From Nitrospirota bacterium (GTDB lineage Bacteria; Nitrospinota_A; UBA7883; JACRGQ01), in the NCBI GenBank assembly GCA_024275955.1, contig JAJRYD010000029.1, positions 4,500-68,499 of the forward strand: a stretch of DNA of 64,000 nt, given 5' to 3'. Numbering within the stretch: the stretch's first letter is position 1; every line of letters begins with the position of its first letter. The notes below the pieces were generated by a model that did no database searches, was not told the origin of the DNA, and worked only from the letters and a program-made list of their open reading frames with translations. Of the stretch, positions 1,931 through 62,372 are shown in pieces. The translations under genes were made by a program, and so were the position numbers.

Positions 1931-3121
1931 ATGAAAGAAAAAAGAGCTAATCTAGGGGTGTTGCCGTTTTTATTGCTTTGCGGCATCGTTGCCTTTGTTG
2001 GGCGTGGCGATACACTCGCGGAAGATTCTGGCCTATCCGGGCAATGGATAAACTCCCACTGGTTCCACCCGCTTCCGCCCATGGGCAAAAAGCCTACGGG
2101 CTTTTCGGATCTCGAAGCTTCGCTGATACCAAAGGATTGCGGTGAATGCCATGAAAAGCAGTATAGCGACTGGTCTGCTTCACGGCACTCAAAATCTATG
2201 GGGAATGGCGTTGTCGGACAGTTTCATCCGCCGTGGATAGATGACAAAATGAGAGTGAGCTGTCAGGAATGCCACGCGCCTTTGTATGAGCAAAACCCTG
2301 TCGTGGTCGCTGGCGGGGAGATAGTTAAGAACAGGCTTTATAAAAAGGATGTCGCGTCATACGGTGTTTCGTGCGCCGTATGCCATGTCCGAAAGCATGT
2401 AAGGTATGGCCCGATACCAAGAAAATTACAGGATCCAGATACGCCGCATAACGGGTTTATCGAGAAAAATGATTTTAACAGCTCCGAATTTTGCAAACCT
2501 TGCCATCAGTTCAACCCTAACGGCAGGTCGCTAAACGGAAAGCTTATGCAAGATACCTATGAACAATGGAAGCGGTCGCCTGCCGCCAAAGAGGGGAAGG
2601 TTTGCGCTTCTTGTCATATGCCGGACAGGAAGCATATTTTTCAGGGAGTACACCACGAACAGATGGTTAACGAAGGGCTTTCGGTAGATTTGGAAAGAGG
2701 GGCCGAGTACGCGACTCTTTCGGTTAAAAATACTGGGGTTGGGCATAAATTTCCGACATATGTCACCCCAAAGGTTGTGGTTTCGGGAAAGGTCATAAAT
2801 CTCGACGGAAAGGCTGTAGATGGAACCCTAAAGGAGTATTACATTCAATGGAGTGTTTCGCTAGATTTAAGTGAGGAGTATTTTGATACAAGGCTCGACC
2901 CAGACGAAACGCTTAAGGCGTACTTCAAGTTTCCTATGGAGCATTCCGGTAATATATTCGAGATAGATATCAGAGTTTACCCAGATGAATTCTACAGGCG
3001 GTTTTATGAGGCTATGATAGCAAATCCTCCAAAGGGGGTAGATGTTCCCATGCTTAAAAAAGCGCTAAAAGAAGTAAAGAGTTCGGATTTCTCTGTCTAC
3101 AACCGGCGAGTCGCGTTTTAG
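1931..3121 (+). CDS. Multihaem c-type cytochrome, periplasmic, with five CxxCH motifs
   Basis: It has an N-terminal signal-peptide-like hydrophobic segment. The haem-binding motifs are CGECH, CQECH, CAVCH, CKPCH and CASCH. Confidence 0.8.
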   Translation: MKEKRANLGVLPFLLLCGIVAFVGRGDTLAEDSGLSGQWINSHWFHPLPPMGKKPTGFSDLEASLIPKDCGECHEKQYSDWSASRHSKSMGNGVVGQFHPPWIDDKMRVSCQECHAPLYEQNPVVVAGGEIVKNRLYKKDVASYGVSCAVCHVRKHVRYGPIPRKLQDPDTPHNGFIEKNDFNSSEFCKPCHQFNPNGRSLNGKLMQDTYEQWKRSPAAKEGKVCASCHMPDRKHIFQGVHHEQMVNEGLSVDLERGAEYATLSVKNTGVGHKFPTYVTPKVVVSGKVINLDGKAVDGTLKEYYIQWSVSLDLSEEYFDTRLDPDETLKAYFKFPMEHSGNIFEIDIRVYPDEFYRRFYEAMIANPPKGVDVPMLKKALKEVKSSDFSVYNRRVAF

Positions 3122-3254: not shown

Positions 3255-3384
3255 GGGGACTGTTTTCAAAAGAGTTTTTTGAGCATTTTAAGGGGAAGTT
3301 TATTTTCTAACTTCTTAAAAATAGAATCGTTAGAGATTGGCAATTTGTAGCAAAACCAAGATTGTCTTATTTGCCAACAGCCCC
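3255..3384 (+). repeat. Copy A of a roughly 130-nt conserved intergenic element (candidate structured small RNA or MITE-like repeat)
   Basis: It is near-identical to 58403..58531 on the same strand. The core reads aaaagagttttttRagcattttaagggRaagtttattttctaacttcttaaaaatag...gattggYaatttgtagcaaaaccaagattgtcttatt. A closing helix pairs GGGGaCTGTT at the 5' end with AACAGCCCC at the 3' end. The element lies in a 739-nt intergenic gap. Confidence 0.5.
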
Positions 3385-3517
3385 GCAAGGTGTGGCTATC
3401 GTGCTTTTGATGAGGCTGTTAAACTTAAAATGCTAATAAGGTTAGATATTTTCAAGCTTGGCCTGCTTTTTTGTTTTTAAGCCCTACCTGCTAGTAAGTG
3501 CAAAGGATTCGTCTCAG

Positions 3518-3546
3518 CCTTCCGGCGGAAGGTCTGTTGTTTTTGG
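3518..3546 (+). terminator. Possible intrinsic terminator: hairpin CCTTCC-ggc-GGAAGG followed by a T-rich tract
   Basis: A 6-bp GC-rich stem with a 3-nt loop is followed by tctgttgtttttgg. It lies about 135 nt downstream of repeat copy A, inside a spurious 77-aa ORF. Confidence 0.3.
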
Positions 3547-3859: not shown

Positions 3860-4735
3860 ATGGAGCTGAAAAACGAAGACTTTCTTGAACTAAAAAACTA
3901 TATACACAAAACGTGCGGCATACATATCAATGAGAGCAAGAAATATCTTGTACAGCAAAGGTTATCGCCTGTGGCGCAATCGCTGGGGCTTGAATCGTTT
4001 AGAAAACTTATACAAAAACTGGAGAACGATTCTGCCTTGGGAGAGAGGATAGTAGAAAGCATAACCACGAATGAAACAAGTTTTTTTAGAGATGACCATC
4101 CTTTTGGCACTTTTGGGACGATGATTCTTCCAAAGCTTGGAGAGCTGATACGCAAGAGAAAAGAGCGTCAGAATAATATGGAAGGGCCGAAAGTGAACCT
4201 ATGGTGCGCCGCGTCGTCAACAGGTCAGGAGCCTTATAGCCTTTCTATGCTGATAAGCGAGTACGTCGATTCGAATAAATATAACGGCATCTCTATAGAC
4301 GATTTTTCAATACTCGCGACAGATATTTCGTCTGAGGTTTTGTCTCAGGCTATATCTGGAGAGTATTCGAACTTGGAGGTAAGACGCGGCCTTTCAGACG
4401 AGAGAAAAAAGAAATATTTTATCAAGAGAGAACCTGACGGATGGATTCTTAGCGGAGCAATTAGAGGCATGGTCGATTTTAGAAAAATAAACCTCGCTGA
4501 AAGTTTCACAACGCTTGGCCGGTTTGATGTCATTATTTGCAGAAATGTTTTGATCTATTTTGACGACCATACTAAAGGTAGAATTTTTAGTCAATTTAGG
4601 AAGATGCTGTCTGACGATGGTTTGCTTGTTCTTGGAGCGTGCGAAAATGTCCGCCTGCTTACTGACGAATTTGAATCTTTTACACATGGGCAGACAATAA
4701 TGTATAGGCCAAAAACATCTAAGGCTCCTCGGTGA
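3860..4735 (+). CDS. cheR: Chemotaxis protein methyltransferase CheR (solitary copy)
   Basis: It carries the CheR N-terminal all-alpha domain and the SAM methyltransferase domain, with SFFRDDHPF and VWCAASSTGQEPYSL motifs. Confidence 0.85.
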   Translation: MELKNEDFLELKNYIHKTCGIHINESKKYLVQQRLSPVAQSLGLESFRKLIQKLENDSALGERIVESITTNETSFFRDDHPFGTFGTMILPKLGELIRKRKERQNNMEGPKVNLWCAASSTGQEPYSLSMLISEYVDSNKYNGISIDDFSILATDISSEVLSQAISGEYSNLEVRRGLSDERKKKYFIKREPDGWILSGAIRGMVDFRKINLAESFTTLGRFDVIICRNVLIYFDDHTKGRIFSQFRKMLSDDGLLVLGACENVRLLTDEFESFTHGQTIMYRPKTSKAPR

Positions 4736-9819: not shown

Positions 9820-10386
9820 ATGGGTCGGCTTAATTTATCTAACTTGCAGAAAGACGAGCGGATTTTGGCAAAGGTTCTTCTTAAAAACGACATTGTGGGC
9901 GAGGCGAGCCTTCAGCAGTATATGGACTTTAATAAGATACATGATGAGGTTGGCAAAGAATTTTTAGGCAAGATACTTATTCGGCTTGGCTACATCACCG
10001 AGGCCGACCTTGATCGGTACATACTTGAAAAGGAGAAGCCATACCTTGAGTTTTGCGAACTGCTTGTGAAGGATGGTTTTATAAAACCGGAGCAGTTTCA
10101 AGAGGTCAAAAGACGGCACGAAAGCGAAGGGCAGGATGTTTTGACGGCTGTCTCCGATATGAACATAATGACCAGAGATACGTTTGTGCGGAGCTTCAAT
10201 AATAAAATGTTCGGTTTAAGGCTTGGGGAATGGCTGAAGTTGAGCCAGAAAGTTACAGACGAGCAGATAGAAAAAGCCCGTGACGCACAAAAAGTTTACA
10301 CTCTTTCCGCTTACCTCATTCACAAGGGGCTTTGTTCCAAAGCGGTAATTGAGCAGGTAGAAGAAAAGATAGCGTTGGCTACATAA
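9820..10386 (+). CDS. Small protein built of tandem GspE-N/MshEN-like repeats (paralogue A); candidate c-di-GMP-binding adaptor
   Basis: It contains repeats such as LAKVLLKNDIVGEASLQQYM and FLGKILIRLGYITEADLDRYILEK, plus three further copies. These fit the MshEN/T2SSE_N pattern (R)LGxxLLxxGLLxxxxLxxxLxxQ. No ATPase domain is present. Confidence 0.5.
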   Translation: MGRLNLSNLQKDERILAKVLLKNDIVGEASLQQYMDFNKIHDEVGKEFLGKILIRLGYITEADLDRYILEKEKPYLEFCELLVKDGFIKPEQFQEVKRRHESEGQDVLTAVSDMNIMTRDTFVRSFNNKMFGLRLGEWLKLSQKVTDEQIEKARDAQKVYTLSAYLIHKGLCSKAVIEQVEEKIALAT

Positions 10387-10411: not shown

Positions 10412-11023
10412 GTGAACGAGTGCCGGGGGAATATTGAGATAAGTGGGGGAGTTATAAACGTGGCTGATCTGGATTTTGACGCGCTGGAAACAAAAGAAAA
10501 AAACCTAGCCAAAGTTCTATTAAAGAACAACCTGATGACCGAAGAGGTCTTTGGCAAATACCTTAAATTTAAAGAAGAGTGTGACGATATGGGCAAGCAG
10601 TCGCTTTGGAAAGTCCTTTTGCGTCTTGAGTATCTTACTCAAGGTGACCTAGATGAATATATTGAGGAGAGGAAAGAGCCGTACATACAGTTCTGCAAGA
10701 CGCTGGTTAACGACGGCTTTATGGAGCAGGAGCAGTGGGAGGCGGTTCAAGAGCAATGCAAGAACGGTAAAGAGATAGTGATGGCTTTGAGTGATGAGAA
10801 TGTAATGACGAGAGATAACTTTTTGCGTAGTTTTATACGTCATACAGGCGAGCCGAGATTGAGCGAATGGCTGGTTAGTAAAGCCAAGCTGACCGCTGAA
10901 CAGCTAAAGAACGCTAAAAAGCTTCAGCGCGAGTGCCGGTTATCCGATTTTTTAATTCAGCATGGTTTTTGCAAAGAGAATGTCGTGAGGAAGGTCGAGG
11001 AAAAGATAGCCGCCGTCAGCTAG
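10412..11023 (+). CDS. Paralogue B of the GspE-N/MshEN-like repeat protein
   Basis: It is colinear with paralogue A (LAKVLLKNNLMTEEVFGKYL.., LLRLEYLTQGDLDEYIEE.., ..KVEEKIAAVS). The two form a tandem duplication 26 nt apart. Confidence 0.5.
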   Translation: MNECRGNIEISGGVINVADLDFDALETKEKNLAKVLLKNNLMTEEVFGKYLKFKEECDDMGKQSLWKVLLRLEYLTQGDLDEYIEERKEPYIQFCKTLVNDGFMEQEQWEAVQEQCKNGKEIVMALSDENVMTRDNFLRSFIRHTGEPRLSEWLVSKAKLTAEQLKNAKKLQRECRLSDFLIQHGFCKENVVRKVEEKIAAVS

Positions 11024-26815: not shown

Positions 26816-27155
26816 ACCGGAATTCGATAACAGAATTATTGAAAAACCTCTCACAAAAGACGAGCTTGAGAAGATGGCTAAAGGCCACAACGGAACAATA
26901 AAGCTAGTGGCAGATATTCAAAGGGAAAGAGTTGCCGCCGGCGCCAAGTGGCATAGCGGTTTGCGTAATCTTTTGGTCGCTGAAGGCTCAAATCCTGACG
27001 ATTGCTGGGGCGCCAAAATTGATATCAATTCAGGCGGGATAGTCTACGAATCGCAGATAAATAAAGAAAAACCGCAGCACAATGCGGTGGAGATAAAAGA
27101 CGACGCGGTTAGAAAAAAAATGAAGCTGTTTATAGAAAGGTTTTTCGTGCCTTAA
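26805..27155 (+). CDS. Hypothetical small protein
   Basis: It overlaps the DUF502 gene by 11 nt. I recognise no motifs. Confidence 0.35.
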   Translation: MANEPEFDNRIIEKPLTKDELEKMAKGHNGTIKLVADIQRERVAAGAKWHSGLRNLLVAEGSNPDDCWGAKIDINSGGIVYESQINKEKPQHNAVEIKDDAVRKKMKLFIERFFVP

Positions 27156-27368
27156 GAGACTGTTTTCCAAGCTTGACAGATGTAACCGAGCGGAAAAGGC
27201 AGGCGACAGAAAATACCGCCGCGGAAAAAATGATATGCAGTTTGGCGATACTTGCGATCCTACCGAGCGGTAGTGCAGAAAGGATGCTTATCACTTTGCG
27301 GCGGGGTAGTCTTACTGCCTGCTTTCTTAGAGGAATTGCAAGTTTGTCTGGCATCTCTTTCAAATACC

Positions 27369-27530
27369 TCAAAGTTTTAAATCAATCCTGCCTGAGCTTG
27401 ATTTGGTACTGAAAATTTCCTTGGCCATCTTGGATGCTATCTCTCTCGACTTGACCTTGTATTTTTTGTCGGCTATCTCTTTGCGGAACTTCTCGACCAG
27501 CTCCTTGCGTATTCCGCTTACCGGCGGCAC
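27369..27530 (-). CDS. flgM: FlgM-like anti-sigma-28 factor, 53 aa. This small gene is absent from the six-frame ORF track.
   Basis: The minus-strand ORF has a GTG start. It translates to VPPVSGIRKELVEKFRKEIADKKYKVKSREIASKMAKEIFSTKSSSGRIDLKL, which closely follows the FlgM C-terminal domain (for example B. subtilis ..[32 protein letters not shown]). A GGAGGG SD lies 7 nt upstream of the GTG. A sigma-28 -10-like CCGATAA lies about 70 nt upstream. Confidence 0.6.
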   Translation of the reverse strand: MPPVSGIRKELVEKFRKEIADKKYKVKSREIASKMAKEIFSTKSSSGRIDLKL

Positions 27531-27770
27531 TTAATTTCCCTCCAAAAAGAGATATCCCGGCAGGTTTTTACCTAATTCATCCAATACTTGCATAGATTTC
27601 TTATCGGGATTGCAGATATTTTTCATAAGGGTATAGTGATATAGGCTTTTAAAACAGCAAGTTAAGGCATTCTTCTGTGCTGGTTTTTCTGTTTTTCTTT
27701 TTTTGGAACGAGGTTTGCTCCTATCTTTGTTAAGTATAAAATATATAAGAACTTAAAACTGGATAGTGAT

Positions 27771-45704: not shown

Positions 45705-47975
45705 GTGTCCGCCCAAATAATTGAAAAACTCGATAAGCTCGCTATGCACCTTATGATGATAGACGAGTATCTTGGCGATCTTTTGCAGACCTCTGAAGCT
45801 AGTAGCATGGCTGACGAAGTTAAGGTACTGCTCGCCTCTACAGAACCACTCCAGCTTGTCGGTATTTTTGATGGAGTTTCTCAGCTGTTCGAAAAATTTC
45901 TGCTCGATTCCAGCTCCGGTAAAGGCCCTGACGCAATAAGACTTACTAATGAAGGGATAAATATTGTCAAAGATGTGCTTGGCGGAACCTCCGCTTTTGA
46001 GGACGTAAAAGATAAGTTCAATGCTCTTATCGGAGAGTTTAAGTCGGTTTTCGAAATTGAAGTTGAGGTTTTCCCTGTAGGGTCTGGCAGTGTGCCGCCT
46101 GCGCCGAAAAAGCCGGTAGAAACAGTGCCTCCTAAAGAGGAAGCCAAAGCAGATGGTGAAGGTAAGCGTACAGAGCTGGTTCTTCTGGACGAAAACGATG
46201 TCGAAATTTTCGATGGTTTTCTTGAGGAATCTTCTGAAAGTTTAGGAAAGGTGGAGGATTACCTTATCGAGCTTGAAGAAGACGCGAAGAATATGGAGAT
46301 AGTAAACTCTCTGTTTCGGATTTTTCACAGCCTTAAAGGCGCGGCCGGTTTTCTTGGTATGACCGAGGTAAACTTTCTTTGCCACCAGACCGAAAACATG
46401 CTGGATCAGGCCCGCAAGTCTATGCTCGATATTGATGCCGAGGTAATAGACATACTTCTTGCTTCAAAGGATTTGCTTGAAAAGGGGCTTCATTTTCTTC
46501 ACGACTTACTTAGCGAAGGAAGGGAAAAGCTTCCTAACTTTAGGGGAGAGTGCGACCCACTTGATGTTAAGCCGATAGTGGAGCTTATCGACAGGAAGCT
46601 TTACCTCGCTTCTATGGAAGATGATGACGATACGGGGCCTCCGAAGCTTGGACAGATTTTAGTAGAGCAAAAAGCGGTTTCCCCCGCGAAGCTGGAAGCG
46701 GCGCTGACCCAAAAATCGAAGCCTGTTGGTGAAGTTCTTGTCGAGATGGGGGTTCCAAGAAAAGATGTAGATAAAGCTGTTGCCACACAAGGCGCGAAAA
46801 AGAAAGAGTTCAAATCCTCCTCTGTCAAAGTAGACACTTCTAAGCTGAACATTTTGCTGGACCTTGTGGGTGAGCTTGTTATTTCGCAGTCGATTATTTC
46901 GCAGAATAAGGCTCTTGCCTCAGACACGAACGCGCGGCTTTCTAAGGATATTTCGGAGATGGCCAAAATTACCGACGGGATACAGGATCATATAATGAGC
47001 CTTAGAATGGTGCCGTTAAAGCAGACTTTCGGCAAAATGAATAGGCTGGTAAGAGACCTTTCTAGGAAAACCAATAAGCGTGTAACTCTTGAAGTAGATG
47101 GGGAAGATACCGAAATAGATAAAACCATAGTAGACCAGCTAAACGACCCGCTTGTGCATATCCTTCGGAATTCGGTTGATCACGGCATAGACACTGTGGA
47201 GGAGAGAATCGCCGCCGGCAAAAGCCCCGAAGGTACCGTTACCTTAAGCGCTTACCACAAAGGCGGTAACGTCGTAATAGAAATCAAGGACGACGGGAGA
47301 GGCTTGAACCTTGCGAAGCTGAAGGCAAAAGGTGTTGAAAAAGGCTTTTTTACCTAAGACGGAGAATACAGTGATGAGGAGCTTATAGAGGTAATCTTCA
47401 GGCCGGGGCTTTCTACCCACGCGGTAGCGACAGACCTTTCTGGCCGAGGTGTCGGTATGGATGTGGTGAGGAGAAATGTCGATAGCCTTGGCGGGCGTGT
47501 GGAAGTTCAGACGGTTTTGGGGGAAGGTAGCACCTTTCTTATCAGGCTTCCTCTTACGATGGCTATCGTCGATGGTATGTTAGTGCAGGTTGGAAGCGAG
47601 AGATATATAATCCCTACCATATCAATCAGCGAGTCTATAAGGCCAAAAGCGGAGCAGTTTACGAGGGTTATTGGAAAGGGCGAGATGCTCAATGTAAGGG
47701 GAGAGATGATACAGCTGGTACGCCTGCACGATCTTTTTGGAATACAAAACGGAGATAAGGATATTTCCGAAAGTCTTGTTATAATTGTCAACACTGATAA
47801 CGACAAAAGAGGTCTTTTGGTAGATGATCTGTTGGGCCAGCAACAGGTGGTGATTAAAAACCTCGACAAACGGTTGCAGGGGATAAAAGGTTTTTCAGGC
47901 AGTTCCATACTGGGTGACGGGCTTGTTGGCCTTATCCTTGATATCGGCGGTATTTTTAAGTTGGCTTCTTCGTGA
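45705..47975 (+). pseudogene. cheA: Chemotaxis histidine kinase CheA (copy 1) interrupted by a single in-frame TAA at 47355-47357
   Basis: ORFs 45705..47357 and 47457..47975 are in the same frame, with no other stop between them. The join (..EKGFFT*DGEYSDEELIEVIFRPGLST..GRGVGMDVV) aligns with the intact paralogue (..EKGVLNQAQGSAMSDEEVFNLIFHPGFST..GRGVGMDVV). Domains present are a roughly 170-aa N-terminal extension, P1 Hpt (FHSLKGAAG), P3, P4 HATPase (HILRNSVDHGID) and P5 CheW-like. Confidence 0.7.
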
Positions 47976-48043
47976 ACTGCTTTGGTGTATAATGGAGCGG
48001 ATTCGGGTTTCTCTAGGATTGATAGTTTTGTTAGGAGGTAGAG

Positions 48044-48577
48044 ATGGAAGAATTAGCTGACACTAATAAGTCGTCGGTAGAAACGGCAAATGCCAAAATA
48101 CAGTCCTCCGATGCTAATAGTCAGGAGGGGAAGTATCTTACCTTTGTTCTGTCTGACGAGGAATATGGGCTGGAAATTTTAAAAGTCCGTGAAATTATTA
48201 GTGTTATGGAAATCACTGAGGTGCCTCAGGTACCAGACTATATAAAAGGTGTCATCAATCTTAGGGGCAGGGTTATCCCTGTTATAGACCTCAGGCTGAA
48301 GTTTGGGATGCCGGCGATAGAGTATACCCGTGAGACCTGCATAATCGTGGTAAATGTACTTGATATTCTTCTTGGAATTGTTGTTGATACCGTTGCGGAG
48401 GTGTTGGATATCTCGTCGGCAGATATCGACCCATCTCCGGCTTTTGGAGGTTCTGTCGATACCGACTTTATTCTTGGTATGGGGAAGGTGAAGGGAAAAG
48501 TTAAGATACTTCTCGATATTGACAGAGTACTGTCTGTAGCCGAATTGGAAACGGTAAGGCAGGCCGATTCTACTTAG
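48044..48577 (+). CDS. cheW: Chemotaxis coupling protein CheW
   Basis: It is a single CheW-like domain (YLTFVLSDEEYGLEILKVREI...VINLRGRVIPVIDLR). Confidence 0.9.
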   Translation: MEELADTNKSSVETANAKIQSSDANSQEGKYLTFVLSDEEYGLEILKVREIISVMEITEVPQVPDYIKGVINLRGRVIPVIDLRLKFGMPAIEYTRETCIIVVNVLDILLGIVVDTVAEVLDISSADIDPSPAFGGSVDTDFILGMGKVKGKVKILLDIDRVLSVAELETVRQADST

Positions 48578-48705
48578 GCATAGAATACTGTTTTTAGGTG
48601 ACGGCAAGGCTCTTTTGTCGAGAAGGTCGGGTTTGTCGTTGTTTTCATGCTGTAAAGCCGGGTTCGTTGAGCTTTGCTTTAAGCGAGTAGAAATTAAATT
48701 ATAAA

Positions 48706-49581
48706 ATGAGTCTTTTTTCGTCAGCAACAGGTGGTCATCTGAAAGCAGAATTAAAAGATCTTACTGATGAAGACTTTGATCTTTTCCGCCGTCTCATTTA
48801 CGAACAGTCCGGTATTTCACTAAATGATACCAAGAAGGAACTGCTACGCACAAGGCTCCGCTCCAGGCTGATAAGGGAGGGGTATAGGTCGTACAGGGAG
48901 TACTACAGCTTTATAAAAAAAGACCAGACAGGCAATGCGATAGTGCCTCTGCTTGATGACATTTCGACGAACCTCACTTCGTTTTTTCGGGAAATAAACC
49001 ATTTCAGTTTTCTTGATACCGTTATCCCCAAGATGATAGCCGAAAAGGAAAAGAAGCGCGACAGCACTTTTCGTATATGGAGTGCCGGCTGTTCGTCGGG
49101 GGAGGAGGTCTACTCACTTCTTTTTACGATGCAGGCTCATTTAAAGAACAAAAAACCGGAGTGGAACCTTAAGATGCTCGCTACCGATATTTCGACAGAT
49201 ATACTCCAAAAAGCTAGCAACGGACTCTACGATGTAAAACGAGTGGACGCAGTGCCGCCGTATATGGTTAAGAAATATTTTGTAAAAGAGCTTGGCCCTA
49301 AAGGCAGAGAGATGATGCGTATCAAGCCGGAATATAGGCAGATTGTTACTTTCCGAAGATTTAACCTAATGACAGAAAACTTTCCATTTAAGCATCAGTT
49401 CGACTATATTTTCTGCCGCAATGTTATGATCTACTTCGATAAGCCGACACAGGAGGTTCTGGTGTCCAAATATCACAAACTTTTAAAGCCCAACGGATAC
49501 CTTTTTATCGGGCATTCTGAGAGCCTGACAGGGCTTAATCATAGTTTTAGGTACGCCCAGCCTACGATTTACCAAAAATAG
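48706..49581 (+). CDS. cheR: Chemotaxis methyltransferase CheR (second copy)
   Basis: It has the CheR N-terminal domain and the SAM-binding domain (IWSAGCSSGEEVYSL). Confidence 0.9.
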   Translation: MSLFSSATGGHLKAELKDLTDEDFDLFRRLIYEQSGISLNDTKKELLRTRLRSRLIREGYRSYREYYSFIKKDQTGNAIVPLLDDISTNLTSFFREINHFSFLDTVIPKMIAEKEKKRDSTFRIWSAGCSSGEEVYSLLFTMQAHLKNKKPEWNLKMLATDISTDILQKASNGLYDVKRVDAVPPYMVKKYFVKELGPKGREMMRIKPEYRQIVTFRRFNLMTENFPFKHQFDYIFCRNVMIYFDKPTQEVLVSKYHKLLKPNGYLFIGHSESLTGLNHSFRYAQPTIYQK

Positions 49582-49862
49582 AAGCATGGGATACAAGTTG
49601 CGCGAAATACGGAATTTTCATCTGGAAGCTATCGCTTCTCTATTTTTAAAGTGTAAAGATTTTTTCCAATATTATATAAATAATCATAGTTCAATAGTGG
49701 TTATGATTGCTAGAATGACTGACCGATAGGTTTACTTAAGATATAATTTTAGAAGTATGGGTGCCTTTGACAGTTAGCTGGAAAGGACGGATTGTAGCTA
49801 AGTATAAATGTTTAAAAACTCTTTGTTAAATTTGTTGCAAAGTATCGCTGGGGAGTCTTGGT

Positions 49863-51908
49863 ATGACTGATATGGATCCTGAAATATTTCGGGAATATAT
49901 GTCGGAAGTGTTCGAGTCGCTTGAAGGGCTTGACGAAAAGTTTGTCGCCCTCGAAACGAATCCAGATGACCTGAATATAGTAGATTCCATTTTTAGACCT
50001 GTTCACAGCATTAAAGGCAGTTCCGCCTTTTTTAAGCTCGATCATATTACCGGCTTTTCTCATAAACTGGAGAACCTCCTTGATGATATCAGGAAGGAAA
50101 AACGGTCTATCAACCCAACGATTATAGATGCCCTTCTCAAGGGTACCGATTTTCTTATGGAGATGTTCAAAAGGCTTGCCTCTGGCGACATGAAGGTTGA
50201 GCTTCTTCCAGATGAAAAGGACTTTATAGAGAATCTGGATGATAACCTTTCTAAAGGCGATGATAAAGCGCCAAAGACCTTTAACAGCCACCTCGACAAT
50301 ATAGACGACGCTGTCAACAGTCTTCGTGAAAGCGGTAGAGATGCCGAACTTTTAGACAAAATCTCCAAAAGCCTGTCGGTTGTCCGAAGGCTGGCGAGCG
50401 ATAAGGGGCAGGTAATAATGATAGGAGAGATTGACAGCATGCTTGGAGATGGGGCTATGCCTCAAATTGGAGTATTGGGCGACCTTCTTGTTGAACCGGA
50501 TGAGCTTCCCAAGGTAGAAAAGCTTGGCGACATTCTTGTAGGCAGTGGAGAGGTAGACAAAGAGGCTCTGGAAATGGCTCTTGCCAATAAAGAACCGGAT
50601 CAAATGGTTGGTGACGCTCTGGTAGAGCAAGGCGTAGCGACGGAGGAACAGGTAGGCAAAGCTATTGACAAGCAGAAGAAGGAGAAGGAGGAGCAGAGGA
50701 TCGCCAAACTGAGCATGACGATGCAAAAGACGATGCGCATAGACGAAGAGAAAGTCGATGAGTTTATGGAGCAGATTGGCGAGCTGGTAATCATTTCGGA
50801 AGTGTTCAACTATCTTGATAAAAGACTTAGCTCTATGGATGGAGCCGAGGTTATTTCTAAAGAATTTAAGAACGCGAACATGAATTTTTCGGAATTGACG
50901 CTAAGGCTACAGCATGGGCTGTCGGAAGTGCGGAAGGTAGCTATCAAAGGGATATTCCAGAAAATTCCACGAATAGTGCGCGATATCGCCACCGCAATCG
51001 GGAAAGATGTAGAAGTTATTACCGAGGGAGACGGTATTATGCTCGATAAAAGCCTTGCCGAGAAACTTGAAAGCCCTGTTATCCATATGGTCCGTAACTC
51101 TGTGGATCATGGCGTAGAAACACCGGATATACGAAAGGCGGCCGGCAAACCGGAAAGAGGCACGGTTCGGATTAAGGGCGAAATAATAGGTGAGACACTG
51201 CATATAACCCTTCACGACGACGGGGCTGGGCTTAATCGGGAAAAGCTTATCGCAAAGGCTATAGAAAAAGGGGTTCTAAATCAGGCTCAGGGTAGCGCGA
51301 TGTCGGACGAAGAGGTGTTTAACCTTATTTTCCATCCCGGCTTTTCCACTGCGGCAAAGGTAACGGATATCTCCGGTCGTGGTGTTGGGATGGATGTGGT
51401 TAGACGGGCTATCGACGATACCAAAGGGAAAATATCTATCCAATCCAAGCTGGGTGAGGGGTCGACCTTTACCATATCGGTTCCGATTTCCACTACGCTG
51501 GTGACTATAAACGGCCTGATTGTCGCCATAGGAGAGAGTAAGTTTATATTCCCTGTCGAGGATGTAAAGGAATCGCTAAGGCCGACCGGCGAAGAGGTCT
51601 TCTCGATTAAAGACAGTATAGAGATGGTCAATATAAGAGGAGATATATATCCCCTTATCAGGCTTCACCAAAAGTTTTCAATCGAAACCGATGTCACCAA
51701 ACCACAGGATGGCGTTTGCCTGATAATTGAAAAAAATGGAAACCGATGCTGTGTCTTGACCGACGCTATAGTGGAGCAACAGAATGTGGTGTTGAAGGAT
51801 CTTGGAGTTATTTTTCAGCGGGTAAAGTCTATTATGGGCGGAGCTATTCTGGGCGACGGTTCCATAGGACTTGTTATGAATGTAGAAGGGTTAATGGGGG
51901 AGGGGTAG
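49863..51908 (+). CDS. cheA: Chemotaxis histidine kinase CheA (copy 2, intact)
   Basis: Domains present are P1 Hpt (VHSIKGSSAF), P3 dimerisation, P4 HATPase (HMVRNSVDHGVE...GRGVGMDVV) and P5 CheW-like. Confidence 0.9.
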   Translation: MTDMDPEIFREYMSEVFESLEGLDEKFVALETNPDDLNIVDSIFRPVHSIKGSSAFFKLDHITGFSHKLENLLDDIRKEKRSINPTIIDALLKGTDFLMEMFKRLASGDMKVELLPDEKDFIENLDDNLSKGDDKAPKTFNSHLDNIDDAVNSLRESGRDAELLDKISKSLSVVRRLASDKGQVIMIGEIDSMLGDGAMPQIGVLGDLLVEPDELPKVEKLGDILVGSGEVDKEALEMALANKEPDQMVGDALVEQGVATEEQVGKAIDKQKKEKEEQRIAKLSMTMQKTMRIDEEKVDEFMEQIGELVIISEVFNYLDKRLSSMDGAEVISKEFKNANMNFSELTLRLQHGLSEVRKVAIKGIFQKIPRIVRDIATAIGKDVEVITEGDGIMLDKSLAEKLESPVIHMVRNSVDHGVETPDIRKAAGKPERGTVRIKGEIIGETLHITLHDDGAGLNREKLIAKAIEKGVLNQAQGSAMSDEEVFNLIFHPGFSTAAKVTDISGRGVGMDVVRRAIDDTKGKISIQSKLGEGSTFTISVPISTTLVTINGLIVAIGESKFIFPVEDVKESLRPTGEEVFSIKDSIEMVNIRGDIYPLIRLHQKFSIETDVTKPQDGVCLIIEKNGNRCCVLTDAIVEQQNVVLKDLGVIFQRVKSIMGGAILGDGSIGLVMNVEGLMGEG

Positions 51909-52871
51909 ATGGCATCTTCCGCGGCGATGGACGCTTTTTTTGAGGAAAGCGATTCTCATATAGAGATAGCAGAAGCGGCACTGCTTGAACTAGAGAAAAA
52001 TAAAGCCGACGCAGATACGATTAATGAGCTGTTTAGGGCGATTCATAGCATCAAAGGGAATGCCGGTCTTGTAGGGCTTACCGAAATACATGCGGCGGCT
52101 ACGGAAATGGAGACTATCCTCGACAGAATAAGAAGCGGCAAGGAAACTGTGTCGGATGAAGATAGGGATAGGCTTTTCGATGATATCGACTTGATTAAAA
52201 GCATGGTGAATAGCGCGAAAAATGATTTGGGGGTAGAAACTGAATCTGCGGTAACAGCGGGAGAGACCTCTACCCCTGATGCCGCAAAACCTGCTGATGA
52301 AACAGTAGCGCGTGCTGGTTCAGCTCCTACTTCCGCCCCTGTGGGAAAGCCTGACAAGGCGGTCAAAGTAACAGCTAAGAGCAAAGCTCTAGCTAGTGAA
52401 GGCGGAGGAACTGACGATATCCAAAAAAAGACGGTATCGTACCTCACCTTCTTTCTCGGCAAGGAGCAATATGGATTTATTATTGGTGATGTGCGTGAGA
52501 TTATTATAAAGAAAGATATAACTATAGTGCCGAACTCCAAGGAGTTTGTCGCCGGGGTAATGAACCTGCGGGGGGTGGTTATTCCTGTCGTAGACGCAAG
52601 GAAGAGGCTCGGGTTTTCCGAGCGTGGCGACCGGCCAAAAGAGGAGAATATAGTTGTCGTGGAGAATGACGGGTTGTCTACCGGAGTTCTTGTTGATATG
52701 GTAGATGATATACTAAAGCTTGAGCCGGATATGATTGTTTCCGCGGATAAGGCTCTGGGCGGTCTTAGAGACAGCAGTAAATTTATAGGTGGTCTTGGTA
52801 AAGCTGGGAAAAGTACAATTATGCTTATAGAGACATCTTCTTTTTGTGACTCCAACGAAGAGTTTTTTTAA
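51909..52871 (+). CDS. Hpt-CheW hybrid protein (CheA-like P1 domain, Ala/Thr/Pro-rich linker, CheW domain; no kinase domain)
   Basis: The N-terminal Hpt reads FRAIHSIKGNAGLVGL with a phosphorylatable His. A low-complexity linker follows. The C-terminal CheW domain reads YLTFFLGKEQYGFIIGDVREI...VMNLRGVVIPVVDAR. The start codon directly abuts the cheA2 stop. Confidence 0.8.
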   Translation: MASSAAMDAFFEESDSHIEIAEAALLELEKNKADADTINELFRAIHSIKGNAGLVGLTEIHAAATEMETILDRIRSGKETVSDEDRDRLFDDIDLIKSMVNSAKNDLGVETESAVTAGETSTPDAAKPADETVARAGSAPTSAPVGKPDKAVKVTAKSKALASEGGGTDDIQKKTVSYLTFFLGKEQYGFIIGDVREIIIKKDITIVPNSKEFVAGVMNLRGVVIPVVDARKRLGFSERGDRPKEENIVVVENDGLSTGVLVDMVDDILKLEPDMIVSADKALGGLRDSSKFIGGLGKAGKSTIMLIETSSFCDSNEEFF

Positions 52872-52876
52872 CTTAA

Positions 52877-53920
52877 ATGTCAAAAATCAAAGTTCTTATA
52901 GTCGATGATTCTGCCGTAGTGCGGAATATACTTGCCGAGGCGCTTTCCAAAGATTCTGAGATAGAGGTGGTTGGCACCGCTACTGACCCGTATGCCGCCC
53001 GCGACAAAATTGTAAAACTTAATCCCGATGTTTTGACACTCGATGTCGAAATGCCGCGCATGGACGGCATTACATTTTTAAAAAAACTTATGCATTCCAA
53101 GCCTATGCCGGTGGTTATGGTAAGCTCCCTTACGCAGTCGGGTGCCGACACCACAATGGCGGCGATGGAAGCAGGTGCCGTGGAGATTGTCGCCAAACCG
53201 GCGATAGATCTTCATAGAGGGCTCAACGACATGGTTGTTGAGATTGTCGATAAGGTTAAGGCCGCCTCCAAGGTGAAAATGGATGTGTATACGCAAAGGT
53301 TATCTGCCGTAAAAAAAGCGGCGCCGAAGGTGCTTAGCTCCGCAATGATAAAAACTACCGACAAGATTATTTCTATTGGAGCTTCTACCGGCGGAACAGA
53401 AGCTTTAAGAGAGGTTTTGATGCAGATGCCTTCCAACTCTCCTGGAATCTGCATAGTACAGCATATGCCAGCGGGCTTTACCAAAGCTTTTTCAGATAGG
53501 CTAAACGGGTTGTGCCAGCTTGTAATAAAGGAAGCAGAGAATAACGACACCGTTATACCGGGGAGGGTTCTTATCGCTCCCGGGCATAGCCATATGCTCC
53601 TTAAAAGAAGCGGTGCCAGATATTATGTGGAAGTGAAAGACGGCCCATTAGTGATGAGACACAAACCGTCCGTGGAGGTACTTTTCAATTCCACCGCGAA
53701 ATATGCCGGCGCCAACTCTATAGGTGTGATACTTACAGGTATGGGGGGGGATGGTTCATCCGGCATGCTGGAGATGAAAAAGTCTGGAGCGCATACGATA
53801 GCGCAGGACGAAAAGTCGTGCGTTGTGTTTGGGATGCCAAAGGAAGCTATCAAACTCGGTGGAGTAAACGACATCATTTCGCTGGATAAAATTCCATCAG
53901 CAATACTTAAATCTCTCTAG
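52877..53920 (+). CDS. cheB: Chemotaxis response regulator protein-glutamate methylesterase CheB
   Basis: A REC domain (VLIVDDSAVVR...LTLDVEMPRMDG) precedes a CheB methylesterase domain (GASTGGTEAL, HMPAGFTKAF, GMGGDGSSG). Confidence 0.9.
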   Translation: MSKIKVLIVDDSAVVRNILAEALSKDSEIEVVGTATDPYAARDKIVKLNPDVLTLDVEMPRMDGITFLKKLMHSKPMPVVMVSSLTQSGADTTMAAMEAGAVEIVAKPAIDLHRGLNDMVVEIVDKVKAASKVKMDVYTQRLSAVKKAAPKVLSSAMIKTTDKIISIGASTGGTEALREVLMQMPSNSPGICIVQHMPAGFTKAFSDRLNGLCQLVIKEAENNDTVIPGRVLIAPGHSHMLLKRSGARYYVEVKDGPLVMRHKPSVEVLFNSTAKYAGANSIGVILTGMGGDGSSGMLEMKKSGAHTIAQDEKSCVVFGMPKEAIKLGGVNDIISLDKIPSAILKSL

Positions 53921-55464: not shown

Positions 55465-58098
55465 TTGAGTAAGCACGAGTTAAGCAAAAGATACGACCCA
55501 AAAGAGGTAGGCAGACGCTGGTATAAGTACTGGCTTGAAAAAGGATACTTCAAAGCGGATGATAACTCAGAGCGTCCTCCGTTTACCATAGTAATCCCCC
55601 CGCCTAACGTAACAGGCTCTTTGCATCTTGGTCACGCGCTCGATAACACATTGCAGGATATTCTCATCCGCTATAAAAGGATGAGCGGCTTTAATACCCT
55701 CTGGATGCCGGGGACAGACCATGCAGGTATAGCTACCCAGAACGTCGTTGAAAAACAGCTCGCCTTAGAAGGTACCGACCGCCACGCGCTGGGACGGGAA
55801 AAATTCGTGGAGCGTGTGTGGGAATGGAAGGAGCAGTACGGCGGAAAAATTATTGAACAGCTAAAAGAGCTTGGCGCGTCGTGCGACTGGGATAGGCAAA
55901 GGTTTACTCTGGATGAACAGCTTTCCAAAGCTGTTCGTGAGGTGTTCGTCAAGCTTTACGAAGAAGGGCTTATATACAGGGCTAAGTATATAACCAATTG
56001 GTGTCCGCGGTGTCATACAGCTCTTTCCGATCTTGAAGTTGAGTATCAAGACAGACACGGGCATCTATATGAGATTGAATACCATCTGTCAGATGGAAGC
56101 GGCTCGCTTATAGTCGCCACTACAAGGCCAGAGACTATGCTTGGCGACAGTGCCGTTGCGGTAAACCCCGAAGACGAAAGATATAAACCGTTCGTAGGCA
56201 AAAAAGTAAAACTGCCGCTTACCGATAGAGAAATTCCTGTAATAGAAGATTCTTATGTAGCGGTCGATTTTGGTACCGGTGCGCTGAAGATAACACCGGC
56301 ACACGACCCTAACGATTTCGAGATAGGCAAACGCCACGGCCTAGAGCAGATTAAGGTAATAGGCGACGATGGGCGGATGGTAAATGTTTCCGATAACTAT
56401 CTTGGGCTTAGCCGTGAAGAGTGCCGAAAAAGAATAGTGGAAGAGCTCAAAGAGCAGGGCTTTCTTAAAAGTATGAAAAAACATATTCATGCCGTTGGCG
56501 ACTGTTATAGGTGCAAGACGGTAATAGAGCCTAACCTTAGCATGCAGTGGTTTGTTAAAGCAAAACCGCTTGCGAAGAGAGCGGCGAAAGCGGTTAGGGA
56601 CGGCGAGATGGAGTTTGTCCCGAAAACATGGGAGAACACCTACTTCGAGTGGATGGACAACATCCGCGACTGGTGCATAAGCCGTCAGATTTGGTGGGGG
56701 CATAGGATACCGGCATGGTACTGCGATGACTGCGGCGAGGTGACGGTATCGCTTGATGAGGTTGTTCAATGTTATAAATGCAAAAGCAGAAAGATAACGC
56801 AGGAAAGCGACGTGCTTGATACATGGTTCTCTTCCGGTCTCTGGCCTTTTTCGACCCTCGGCTGGCCGGAAAAAACCAAAGCACTAGAGACCTTCTATCC
56901 GACATCGGTGCTGGTAACAGGGTTCGATATCATCTTCTTCTGGGTGGCGAGGATGATGATGATGGGCCTGAAGTTTATGGATAAGGCTCCTTTCTCAAAA
57001 GTTTACATCCACGCGCTTGTGAGAGACGCTAAAGGGAAAAAGATGAGCAAGTCTAAGGGAAACGTAATAGACCCGCTCGAGCTTATGTACAAATACGGTG
57101 CCGACTCTCTGCGGTTTACCATGTGCGCGCTTGAGTCGCAGGGGCGTGACATACGGATGTCGGAAAAGAGAATAGAAGGGTACCGCAACTTTGTAAACAA
57201 GCTTTGGAACGCGTCTCGCTTTGTGCTTATGAACCTCGGTGAGAACGAGAAGGTAAAAGATATTTCGGAAATAAAGCTGGATGTAACCGATAGGTGGATA
57301 CTCAGTCGACTGCAAAAGACCGCCTTTCAGGCTAACAATGCTTTGGATAAATTTAGATTTAACGATCTTGCCAACATACTCTACTCGTTTACATGGAACG
57401 AGTTTTGCGATTGGTATATAGAATTTCAAAAGACACGGCTTCAGTCCAGCGAAAAGGAAGATTCGCTTGCTGTATTGGTTTACGTTCTCGACAAGCTATT
57501 GAAGCTGTTACACCCGATAATGCCTTTTGTAACGGAAGAGATTTACCAAAAGCTTCCCGGCCACGGCGAGTCGATAATGGTTGAGGAGTACCCAACGCGT
57601 GACGAAAAATTTCTGGATGAAACGGCCGAAGCCGAGATGAAACTGGTGATGGAGGTTTTGACTTCGGCGAGGACTATAAGGTCGGAATTAAAAATTCCGC
57701 CTGATAACAAACTGGTAGCAAAGCTTAAATGTGAGACAGAGGAAATAGCAGGCAAGGTAAGCGCGCATGCCGATTCGATACGCTTTCTAGCAAAACTTTC
57801 TTCGCTCGATATCTCTGTCGAAATGGAGCGTCCGCCGACATCGGCGACAGCGGTAATGGACGATCTTGAGGTCTATATCCCGCTTGGTGGAATAATAGAT
57901 ATAGACGAAGAGAAGGCGAGGCTTGAAAAGGAGATTGCCAAAGCGGAAAAAGATATAAAGTTTTTTGAAAAGAAATTCTCAAATGAGAATTTTGTGAAAA
58001 ACGCTCCAAAAGAGGTTCTCGAAAAGGATATGTCCCGCAACGAAGAGCTTAAACGCCTTTTAGTAGGGCTTCGCGACTCGGTATCATGGCTTTCATAA
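55465..58098 (+). CDS. valS: Valine--tRNA ligase
   Basis: The class I HIGH motif (PNVTGSLHLGHA) and KMSKS motif (KMSKSKGN) are present, with a C-terminal coiled coil. Length is 877 aa. Confidence 0.97.
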   Translation: MSKHELSKRYDPKEVGRRWYKYWLEKGYFKADDNSERPPFTIVIPPPNVTGSLHLGHALDNTLQDILIRYKRMSGFNTLWMPGTDHAGIATQNVVEKQLALEGTDRHALGREKFVERVWEWKEQYGGKIIEQLKELGASCDWDRQRFTLDEQLSKAVREVFVKLYEEGLIYRAKYITNWCPRCHTALSDLEVEYQDRHGHLYEIEYHLSDGSGSLIVATTRPETMLGDSAVAVNPEDERYKPFVGKKVKLPLTDREIPVIEDSYVAVDFGTGALKITPAHDPNDFEIGKRHGLEQIKVIGDDGRMVNVSDNYLGLSREECRKRIVEELKEQGFLKSMKKHIHAVGDCYRCKTVIEPNLSMQWFVKAKPLAKRAAKAVRDGEMEFVPKTWENTYFEWMDNIRDWCISRQIWWGHRIPAWYCDDCGEVTVSLDEVVQCYKCKSRKITQESDVLDTWFSSGLWPFSTLGWPEKTKALETFYPTSVLVTGFDIIFFWVARMMMMGLKFMDKAPFSKVYIHALVRDAKGKKMSKSKGNVIDPLELMYKYGADSLRFTMCALESQGRDIRMSEKRIEGYRNFVNKLWNASRFVLMNLGENEKVKDISEIKLDVTDRWILSRLQKTAFQANNALDKFRFNDLANILYSFTWNEFCDWYIEFQKTRLQSSEKEDSLAVLVYVLDKLLKLLHPIMPFVTEEIYQKLPGHGESIMVEEYPTRDEKFLDETAEAEMKLVMEVLTSARTIRSELKIPPDNKLVAKLKCETEEIAGKVSAHADSIRFLAKLSSLDISVEMERPPTSATAVMDDLEVYIPLGGIIDIDEEKARLEKEIAKAEKDIKFFEKKFSNENFVKNAPKEVLEKDMSRNEELKRLLVGLRDSVSWLS

Positions 58099-58402
58099 AA
58101 CCTTCCTAGCCTTTATGTATCTTTAAGAGCTGGTATCTGGCGGTGTCAGCAGGCTAAACGATAATGTTCACACGGGAGCCGATTTCCGACATCTCCGCAG
58201 ACTTTCGTATATCCTGCGTTTCCTGCACTCTGTCGCGCTCCGCCTGTGTGACAGCGTAATTGTCCTTAAGGGCTATCTCTTTGGTTGGCGTGGTTACAGG
58301 CTGGGGAAATTCTGTATGTCCCGATATAGCTTCTGGCATCCTTACCTCATCTTTACCTTAGCTCGATTTTATACTTTTTGCAGGGATATTCAAAGCATTA
58401 TA

Positions 58403-58531
58403 GGGGCTGTTGGCAAAAGAGTTTTTTAAGCATTTTAAGGGAAAGTTTATTTTCTAACTTCTTAAAAATAGAGCCTTTGGAGATTGGTAATTTGTAGCAA
58501 AACCAAGATTGTCTTATTCGGCAACAGCCCC
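58403..58531 (+). repeat. Copy B of the roughly 130-nt conserved intergenic element (candidate structured small RNA or MITE-like repeat)
   Basis: It is near-identical to 3255..3384. Its closing helix is a perfect 10 bp (5' GGGGCTGTTG pairing with 3' CAACAGCCCC). It lies in the 676-nt gap between valS and bamD. Confidence 0.5.
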
Positions 58532-58762
58532 ATTATAGGGTGCCGGCATCTAAGATAGAATCTGAACGCAAGAGTGCAGGCCTCTTTTTATCTGGTTGTG
58601 GCTGGTGACAGCTTGATGCCGGAGATTCCTTTTTAACAGCTCTGCCGGATACGATAGTGGAGAGATAATTTTTTTTGTTAAATGCAAAAAGTCGTGTTTG
58701 CCGTTTGGGGAAAACTGCCTTTTGCTTTTGCTGGAGGCCAGTGCTACCGCTGGCGGGGCGAG

Positions 58763-58786
58763 ACAGCTTTGGCTTAGCTGTTTTTT
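58763..58786 (+). terminator. Rho-independent terminator on the plus strand (ACAGCT-ttggctt-AGCTGT followed by TTTTTT), overlapping the bamD stop codon
   Basis: A perfect 6-bp palindromic stem with a 7-nt loop is followed by a T6 run on the plus strand. The bamD stop at 58774-58776 lies inside the hairpin. Confidence 0.4.
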
Positions 58787-59541
58787 AGTTTTTTTAGCTC
58801 TTCAAGTGCCGCTTTTGCCTGTAATGCCTCTTTTGTTTCGGCAAAGTTTTCTACGATTCTCTGAAAAGTGTTTCTCGCTTTGCTGAACGCTTCTTCTTTC
58901 ATGTACGATTTGCCTTTTAAAAGAAGCGCTTTTGGTGCGTAACGGCTTTTTGGATGTTTTGCTACAAACTCCTCTGCTCTCGATATGCAGGAGACAAAGC
59001 TGTCTATCTGATAATAAAACTCGATTATGTAGATATCCTTTCGGGATATCATGTCGGTCAGCTCTGCTATCTTACTTTTAGCAAAAGGGATTGCTGAATG
59101 ATCAGGGTATTTTATTATAAATTGTTCGAACAGATCTTTCGCTTTTTGAGCCGGTGTTTGATCTCTAGGTATTTTTCCCAGCGACTGATAATGGCTCATC
59201 GCTTTGTAGAAAAGGGCATGGTCAGTGGTGGATGTCATCGGGTAGAGTTCGACAAAGCTCTCGTAGGACGTTTCGGACATTTCATACTCTTTGTTCATGT
59301 AGTATGAATCGGCTACTCCAAGCAGAGCGTGAACCTGAAAAGGGCTGTCTGGAAATTCGTCCAAAATCTGCTTGTAATACTTCCTGGATAGATCGTACTT
59401 ACCGTTGGTGAAGCGGTAGTTGGCATCGTTAAAAAGCTCCAGTTCTTTTTTTACGATGTCATCAGTTTTGCACCCGGAAAGGAAAAGTACCGCGGTGCAG
59501 GCTACGGCGGCGATTTGGATTTTGGGCAAAATCTTTTTCAT
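58774..59541 (-). CDS. bamD: Outer-membrane protein assembly factor BamD-like TPR lipoprotein
   Basis: A lipoprotein signal with a lipobox (LFLSGC) is followed by TPR repeats. The size and architecture match BamD/YfiO. Confidence 0.65.
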   Translation of the reverse strand: MKKILPKIQIAAVACTAVLFLSGCKTDDIVKKELELFNDANYRFTNGKYDLSRKYYKQILDEFPDSPFQVHALLGVADSYYMNKEYEMSETSYESFVELYPMTSTTDHALFYKAMSHYQSLGKIPRDQTPAQKAKDLFEQFIIKYPDHSAIPFAKSKIAELTDMISRKDIYIIEFYYQIDSFVSCISRAEEFVAKHPKSRYAPKALLLKGKSYMKEEAFSKARNTFQRIVENFAETKEALQAKAALEELKKLKNS

Positions 59542-61118: not shown

Positions 61119-62372
61119 TTATTTCGCCCGTTTTTGGCGCATATTCAATATCGTGGTTTTCCGGGCCACGTCTATTTCTGGGGCATATACACTATCGATC
61201 ATTCCCTTCGTGTTCCCCAATATGGAGGCGGTATCGGATGAGCTCACCCCTGCATTTTTTAGCTGCTGTGCCATTGAGTGACGGACAAAAACATTAAGCG
61301 TTACTGTTGGATAACCGGCTTTAGTTGCCGCATCTTTGTATATTGCCCCTAGGATTGGGTGGGTGTATGGAGTCCGTTCCCCTTTTTTACAGTGCTTGGT
61401 AGTTCTTTTGGCCTTGTACTGGAAGATGTAGCTAGAAGGGCCAGCATTGGGGATGAGTGTCATTGAATCTCGTACTGCCTTCATCACCTTTGCAGATAAA
61501 GGGAACTCTAACCCCGCTTTGTCCTGGTCTTTCGGGAAATCTTTATAGCTCTCAATGCCGCTGGTGTTGAAGGCTCCGCTCAATATGTGTACCTGCTGTT
61601 TAAAATTAACGTCCTTAATCTTCACCGCTCTAGCTTCGTTCATTCGTCGACTTGTACCTTCTAGGAAGATAAAAATATGTATATCTTCTTCGGGGATGTG
61701 ATGCAATATCTCTGCTTGCTGATCCCCGTTTAAACCTTTTTTTCTTTTCTTCTGGACTCTCACTGAAGGCTTGGGTACAGGGGCCACGATATCGCCTCTT
61801 TTGTATGCCCAGTTAAGCACCTGCATAAGGTTGTCAATAATCTTCTTTTTAAAAGAATCTTTAAAATACTCCTGCTTACTGTGCTTTTTTCGCAACGTGC
61901 CTAGATGTTCTTTGAAATCTTCAAGAAGGGGGTAGCTTATATCCGCAACATCATATTTATCTAAAAACGAAAGATATGTATTTATCGTAGCTTCCTTATG
62001 CTGGTAACTGCCGATAGACAGCCAGCCATCAGAACCGGGCTTCAATTCCGTTCTGGCCTTCATCTTTTCTAAATAGAAAATCTTGTAGTTTACAAACTTG
62101 TACTTATTTCGCTGGCCACTTTCCCATTTCTTGGGATTAAAGGAGCCATCACTGATTTGAGACACAAGCAATTGTTTCTCGGACACCGCTTTTAAAAGAG
62201 ATAGCGTATCTCCATCACGGTCGTGGTATCTCTCTATAGACACCTTTTCGCGTCTCCACCGCCCCCGAATACGAATATAGACCTTGTTGGGGATTGTAAA
62301 GATGGTCGAGACGAATTTTAAAAAGAAGACTCTGATTATCACGCTCTTTTGCCTGCATAAAATCACTCGCAT
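61119..62372 (-). CDS. Tyrosine-type site-specific recombinase/integrase (phage integrase family); start uncertain
   Basis: The C-terminal catalytic region includes ..R..., H.LRHS.A..L and a terminal Tyr (VRHSMAQQLKNAGVS...SVYAPE). The N-terminus has a SAM-like domain. No adjacent tRNA is visible. Confidence 0.75.
   Translation of the reverse strand: MRVILCRQKSVIIRVFFLKFVSTIFTIPNKVYIRIRGRWRREKVSIERYHDRDGDTLSLLKAVSEKQLLVSQISDGSFNPKKWESGQRNKYKFVNYKIFYLEKMKARTELKPGSDGWLSIGSYQHKEATINTYLSFLDKYDVADISYPLLEDFKEHLGTLRKKHSKQEYFKDSFKKKIIDNLMQVLNWAYKRGDIVAPVPKPSVRVQKKRKKGLNGDQQAEILHHIPEEDIHIFIFLEGTSRRMNEARAVKIKDVNFKQQVHILSGAFNTSGIESYKDFPKDQDKAGLEFPLSAKVMKAVRDSMTLIPNAGPSSYIFQYKAKRTTKHCKKGERTPYTHPILGAIYKDAATKAGYPTVTLNVFVRHSMAQQLKNAGVSSSDTASILGNTKGMIDSVYAPEIDVARKTTILNMRQKRAK

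Follow-up and report, generated by a model that had tools for sequence, protein, structure and literature searches.

A repeated intergenic element downstream of valS

We wanted to find out what kind of sequence occupies the spacer between valS and bamD. The preliminary description presented it as copy B of a conserved intergenic element with paired ends, and proposed a transcript of about 380 nt running from the element to a terminator further downstream. The question was whether such a sequence is a structured RNA gene or a piece of mobile DNA. Our analysis points to the latter, as the element is probably a non-autonomous DNA transposon (MITE) of 129 bp that carries no gene. This removes a candidate novel structured RNA, and one ordinary mechanism would explain both copies.

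The description of the locus as the second copy of a discrete repeated intergenic element proved correct. Copies A and B (Table 1) form a gap-free collinear alignment, in which 117 of 129 positions are identical (90.7%). All 12 differences are substitutions and there are no indels. The similarity collapses exactly at both inverted-repeat ends, and the flanks of the two copies resemble each other at background level (19 of 52 positions identical on the left, 11 of 60 on the right). The copies lie 55 kb apart in the window (the whole stretch of DNA analysed here, 64,000 nt). A low-stringency search of the window detected copies A and B only, with no third copy or fragment. The G+C content of copy B is 36% overall and 28% in the interior, compared with 46% for the window.

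The source organism is a divergent member of Nitrospinota. Its best ValS relatives are 73% identical, the named matches belong to Nitrospinae, and all window proteins tested were singletons at 90% clustering.

Reading along the plus strand, the valS stop is at 58098, and the minus-strand gene bamD (Pfam YfiO) has its end at 58774. The earlier placement of the element between these two genes was right as to the flanking genes, but it passed over a 61-aa minus-strand ORF that intervenes after valS. This ORF lies outside the element. A sigma-70-like promoter for it (58393 to 58366) starts 10 nt away from the element, on the left side. A protein collection contains the identical sequence from the NCBI record, and the protein had no Pfam or NCBIfam match. 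Among 1.84 billion representatives it matched only one repetitive protein of 1023 aa, with 37% identity over 35 residues. We also confirmed that no convincing plus-strand gene follows copy B; the sole candidate was a 62-aa TTG ORF that overlaps bamD.

The element itself has no coding capacity. It contains no conserved ORF with a start codon, the starts of short TTG/ATG ORFs differing between the copies, and translations of its three open reading frames gave no match among 5.8 billion proteins. A peptide gene was considered for the 31-codon plus-strand frame that is open in both copies and was rejected, as the TTG of copy A is TTA in copy B and the frame has no ribosome-binding site.

Table 1. 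Coordinates of the element, of its neighbours and of the related pair of elements in viral contigs.
Feature	Coordinates	Strand	Remarks
Multiheme cytochrome gene	1931-3121	+	copy A begins 135 nt after it
Element copy A	3256-3384	same orientation as copy B	between multiheme cytochrome gene and cheR
Terminator-like hairpin	3517-3533	+	133 nt downstream of copy A; -11.1 kcal/mol
cheR	3860-4735		downstream of copy A
61-aa orphan ORF	58154-58339	-	outside the element; ATG start, GAGG ribosome-binding site
Left flanking direct repeat	58397-58402		ATTATA, putative target-site duplication; abuts the repeat end directly
Element copy B	58403-58531	no strand	129 nt; 90.7% identical to 3256-3384; sharp boundaries
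Left terminal inverted repeat, copy B	58403-58417	+	GGGGCTGTTGGCAAA, putative ancestral form
Right terminal inverted repeat, copy B	58517-58531	-	TTCGGCAACAGCCCC, 2 substitutions relative to consensus
Right flanking direct repeat	58532-58537		ATTATA, putative target-site duplication; abuts the repeat end directly
Terminator-like hairpin	58760-58784	+	downstream of copy B; T-run; overlaps bamD stop codon; -10.1 kcal/mol
Tandem pair of 140-nt MITEs	L031 1852-2141; L033 178-467		units identical at 132 of 140 positions

Terminal inverted repeats and their decay

The perfect 10-bp closing stem reported for copy B is present, with GGGGCTGTTG (58403-58412) pairing with CAACAGCCCC (58522-58531). It is perfect in this copy, but the true inverted repeat is longer, at 15 bp. 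The closing stem corresponds to two terminal inverted repeats of 15 bp. Their consensus, GGGGCTGTTGGCAAA, which we take as the ancestral form, can be reconstructed by combining the two copies; the 10-bp stem of copy B is what survives of this longer repeat. When the right end of copy A is reverse-complemented, it matches the left end of copy B at 15 of 15 nt. Read from the sequence, the inverted extent of the ends is 15 bp, or 17 of the first 19 positions, and further in the two sides are unrelated. We searched the window for the 15-mer with at most 3 mismatches and found 8 matches where 1.7 were expected. Four of the 8 are the four element ends.

Each copy has lost pairs in one of its inverted repeats. 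Substitutions at element positions 117 and 119, in the right arm of copy B, break pairs 13 and 11. The left inverted repeat of copy A (GGGACTGTTTTCAAA) carries three substitutions, and pairs 4, 10 and 11 are lost there. Mismatches thus affect 3 of 15 pairs in copy A and 2 of 15 in copy B. The 30 nt of inverted repeat hold 5 of the 12 substitutions that separate the copies; every one of the five destroys a pair, and the comparison of copy A with copy B gave no compensatory change in the stem. The inverted repeats are 83% identical between the copies, while the interior is 93% identical. This argues against a functional closing helix, for which the opposite would be expected.

Flanking direct repeat and probable insertion site

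Copy B is found in a perfect ATTATA-GGGG...CCCC-ATTATA context. The chance rate of a 6-mer flank match is 8.6e-4 per position in the window, and the extended 10-mer CATTATAGGG at a spacing of 135 is the sole such repeat in the window. On the sequence, the ATTATA pair looks like a target-site duplication. With GGGG and CCCC taken as symmetric ends, the repeat in register measures 6 bp; the 5-mers TTATA and ATTAT mismatch. Copy A is flanked by AATAAG and GCAAGG, in which no clean duplication was recognisable.

Over the 8 nt on their left sides, the two copies agree at 5 positions (GCAATAAG and GCATTATA), and at copy B the direct repeat reaches 10 nt by overlapping the element ends. Together these two features could reflect a target preference or a different insertion chemistry.

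We compared the spacer with that of related genomes. The valS and bamD genes are convergent both here and in a related contig (L029), and they are separated by 675 nt here (58099-58773) and by 31 nt in that contig (10754-10784), so the spacer that holds the element is lineage-specific. The contig comes from a distant relative (BamD 52% and ValS 72% identical) and for that reason does not provide a true empty site. Other relatives carry different genes after valS (TerC, a hydrolase, a hypothetical protein), which indicates that this clade has a rearrangement hotspot downstream of valS.

Comparison with known miniature elements

Prokaryotic MITEs have a published size of 50-800 bp, inverted repeats of at least 10-15 bp and duplications of 2-10 bp (PMC11602168). 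The size, the inverted-repeat length and the duplication length at copy B all fall within these ranges. The element is small and non-coding (129 nt, no conserved coding capacity), and terminal inverted repeats mark its ends (a perfect 10 bp in copy B, 15 bp in the consensus).

In its general build it resembles ERIC/IRU, Correia (NEMIS) and RUP elements, which are likewise non-coding, about 100-155 bp long, with an AT-rich interior and terminal inverted repeats. Elements of this type are dispersed in intergenic regions and often co-transcribed, and their RNA is able to form a long hairpin (PMC10969869, PMC11602168). MITEs are not mentioned for Nitrospinota in the large survey PMC11602168. The element shares no sequence similarity with ERIC/IRU, Correia (NEMIS) or RUP, and unlike these it belongs to an uncultured Nitrospinota lineage. 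Further differences were noted. The duplication of Correia elements is typically TA, whereas that of copy B is the 6-bp ATTATA; no internal promoter was detected, and no IHF-binding site was seen by eye. Two copies are known here, compared with tens to hundreds for the ERIC/Correia/RUP type.

Ends that start with GGGG are a feature of the Tn3 family. The element shares such ends with the Tn3-derived miniature elements (TIMEs), and, like these, it appears to be non-autonomous and to lie in AT-rich targets. Insertion of TIMEs into AT-rich targets has been described, as have their inverted repeats of about 38-40 bp and duplications of 5 bp (PMC4133298). We rejected identity with TIMEs on two defining features, as the inverted extent is 15-19 bp here compared with about 40 bp, and the duplication is 6 bp compared with 5 bp.

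Searches for further copies and for a transposase

The sequence family of the element was absent from every collection scanned. The interior 18-mer GTAGCAAAACCAAGATTG gave 28 matches in species-representative genomes, all confined to the seed and attributable to chance. The end pattern GGGGCTGTTGGCAAAWRAG gave 18 matches in metagenomes, all of them in unrelated sequence. Viral contigs were scanned with several queries. The end 17-mer gave 4 chance matches, and the strict double-end pattern gave none, within a gap range that left out contig L031. Other gap ranges returned 3 elements, none of which was MITE-like. A blastn comparison with plasmids and phages returned only matches of 33-37 nt with E values of at least 0.1.

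In the loci of the relatives (L029, L030 and L076-L079, about 95 kb), neither a copy nor matching ends were found. Searching proteins with the element frames revealed no miscalled proteins at other copies, and in the literature the end sequence was matched by primers only. No transposase domain was detected in 59 window ORFs compared with Pfam (53 of them of at least 150 aa), and the 64-kb window contained neither a longer element with matching ends nor any other pair of such ends.

A 140-nt element with a similar terminus in viral contigs

We scanned viral contigs for two 10-mers in inverted orientation and found a 140-nt element in two of them, IMGVR_UViG_3300029494_000298 (L031) and 3300029493_000159 (L033). 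Both contigs carry it as a tandem pair (Table 1). The end sequence of this viral element, GGGGCTGTTGACAAAGTC, is identical to the terminus GGGGCTGTTGGCAAA at 14 of 15 positions; ten of these positions were fixed by the search pattern, and four of the five beyond them also agree (GGGGCTGTTGACAAA compared with GGGGCTGTTGGCAAA). The 5-mer ACTCT is found before, between and after the two units. When the pair was removed in silico, two ORF fragments fused into a phage ORF of 503 codons, which indicates that elements with almost such a terminus do transpose.

The viral element is of similar size (140 nt compared with 129 nt) and also has an AT-rich interior. The interiors, compared by eye, were not evidently similar. 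The inverted repeats of the viral element are longer (18 bp perfect, about 30 bp with mismatches), its duplication is 5 bp (ACTCT) compared with 6 bp at copy B, and its tandem pair lies inside a phage gene. The terminus 18-mer of L031 was found at 22 loci, of which 20 were attributed to chance and do not represent transposon ends; 18 of them lie in one conserved phage coding sequence.

Since a MITE carried by a phage ends in almost the same terminus, the two may have a transposase in common. We regard the element, with fair but not firm confidence, as a new and apparently lineage-restricted member of the MITE class and not as a novel RNA. A more far-reaching reading would combine several claims, namely an undescribed MITE family restricted to a deep uncultured Nitrospinota lineage, a terminus in common with a phage MITE, a transposase that moves between phages and hosts, and possible retention of the copies in 3' untranslated regions through an effect of the hairpin RNA on mRNA processing. 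That this combination holds as a whole is doubtful.

Proposed origin of the two copies

If the element is a MITE, both of its ends would have been bound by a transposase acting in trans, whose gene lies at another place in the genome or was once present. The element would have been inserted into an AT-rich intergenic site, and repair of a staggered cut would have duplicated 6 bp of the target (ATTATA) at copy B. The empty site before this insertion would have read ...GCATTATAGGGTGCC.... The only working parts of the element would be the two terminal inverted repeats of about 15 bp. Each copy has since changed by about 5% and has lost pairs in one inverted repeat, and both appear to be drifting neutrally. 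Since the ends of both copies are damaged, they are probably immobile, and we consider both copies probably inactive today. Against the MITE reading stand the small number of visible copies, only two, and the flanking duplication at only one of them, as do the lack of a transposase or of a longer element with matching ends in the window and of further copies in the collections scanned.

Each copy follows a plus-strand gene and precedes the first terminator-like hairpin of that strand, so both probably lie in 3' untranslated regions. The one of valS would then passively carry copy B, and the one of the cytochrome gene would carry copy A. The hairpin downstream of copy B had been called a perfect palindromic terminator (58763-58786). 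A terminator-like hairpin does exist at this place, but its perfect stem is just 6 bp (ACAGCT/AGCTGT); counting G-U it has 9 pairs, with a 7-nt loop. It is likely the terminator of valS read-through, and the hairpin at 3517-3533 is likely the end of the cytochrome-gene transcript that carries copy A.

If transcribed, the ends of the element would form a stem of 10 bp, which could incidentally affect mRNA processing. Processing by RNase III has been reported for Correia elements, and by RNase E for ERIC elements (PMC10969869). By analogy with these, the stem is a possible substrate of double-strand-specific RNases. The uncompensated decay of the stem argues against selection for such a role.

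Alternative explanations

The element could be a MITE by origin that was later co-opted as an RNA hairpin of 3' untranslated regions, with its paired ends acting as a processing or stability signal. The two copies have the same orientation and position relative to the upstream gene and the first hairpin, and they would be co-transcribed with that gene if no earlier stop occurs. Copy B keeps a perfect stem of 10 bp, and Correia and ERIC elements provide precedents (PMC10969869). We nevertheless consider co-option unlikely. A shared orientation of two copies has a 50% chance of occurring, the mismatches in both stems (3 of 15 pairs in copy A, 2 of 15 in copy B) are uncompensated, and the ends are less conserved than the interior.

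An independent small-RNA gene in two paralogous copies would give a transcript of about 380 nt with its 3' end at 58786. It would account for the two conserved intergenic copies, for the closing stem and for the terminator-like hairpin about 230-240 nt downstream. Apart from the existence of this hairpin, the proposed transcript found no support. The promoter scan detected no plus-strand promoter-like site in or before copy A or copy B, and the upstream flanks of the copies are unrelated. The stretch of about 230-240 nt between element and hairpin has no counterpart beside copy A, and the closing stem shows neither compensated changes nor a T-run after it.

We also analysed the predicted folding of the element. 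The whole element had a modest folding advantage over shuffled sequences, with z = -1.6 on the plus strand and z = -3.0 on the minus strand. After removal of the 15-nt ends, the z-scores of the interior for both copies and strands were +2.0, +0.25, -0.9 and -0.45. The whole-element scores arise from the ends, and the interior folds no better than shuffled sequence. At gathering thresholds Rfam gave no match anywhere in the window, and 58000-58900 yielded nothing but noise at E values up to 10; the collections searched contained no homologue. These results make a small-RNA gene very improbable, and the element is most likely not a structured RNA gene.

Other RNA classes were considered as well. 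On the plus strand the closing stem is followed by ATTATAGG in copy B and GCAAGGTG in copy A, and on the minus strand by TATAATGC or CTTATTGC. An intrinsic terminator was ruled out, as no T-run follows the stem directly on either strand; the terminator scan did not call a terminator of the element's own in either copy. Retron RNA, riboswitch and leader were rejected on anatomy, and the earlier judgement that the element is not a 5' leader or riboswitch was right.

A chance or segmental duplication with neither mobility nor function would agree with the fact that just two copies are known and that copy A has no flanking duplication. Neither precise ends at 15-bp inverted repeats on both sides nor a 6-bp direct repeat in the flanks would be expected of such a duplication, and we find this explanation highly improbable.

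Integron attC sites begin with RYYYAAC on the 5' side and finish with GTTRRRY on the 3' side, and they are found in a cassette array next to intI. That the element is a repeated protein site, either attC-like or a recombination site (for instance for the ORF at 61119-62372), is hardly credible: it is an imperfect palindrome of about attC size, and a weak tyrosine-recombinase match lies 2.6 kb from copy B (PF00589, 29.4 bits compared with a cut-off of 27.1), but the triplet order is wrong for attC (on either strand, GTT comes on the 5' side and AAC on the 3' side), there is no cassette array and no recombinase near copy A, and the flanking duplication of copy B fits transposition, not conservative recombination.

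Other features of the window

We made several further observations in the window. A 16-nt stretch in copy A (3277-3292, TTTTGAGCATTTTAAG) is 88% complementary to 3424-3439, which lies 40 nt past the element. This could be due to chance (blastn E about 3), or the second stretch could be a small fragment of an inverted third copy.

The 417-aa ORF at 61119-62372 (minus strand), with its weak tyrosine-recombinase signature (Pfam Phage_integrase, 29.4 bits), lies next to trkH. Its NCBIfam XerA-like score was far below the cut-off. The window contains no tRNA gene, so there is no obvious integration site.

Between ORFs of 150 aa or more, the window has its widest gap at 26816-27770 (955 nt). The ORF downstream of this gap encodes 1126 aa and has a ParA/MinD-like ATPase domain at its N terminus.

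Two small adjacent ORFs on the plus strand (9820-10386 and 10412-11023) have no Pfam match, and both match the NCBIfam domain for an MshE-related cyclic-di-GMP-binding motif. The window also encodes a PAS-GGDEF protein, an HDOD protein, two cheR genes and a full che cluster (45705-53920).
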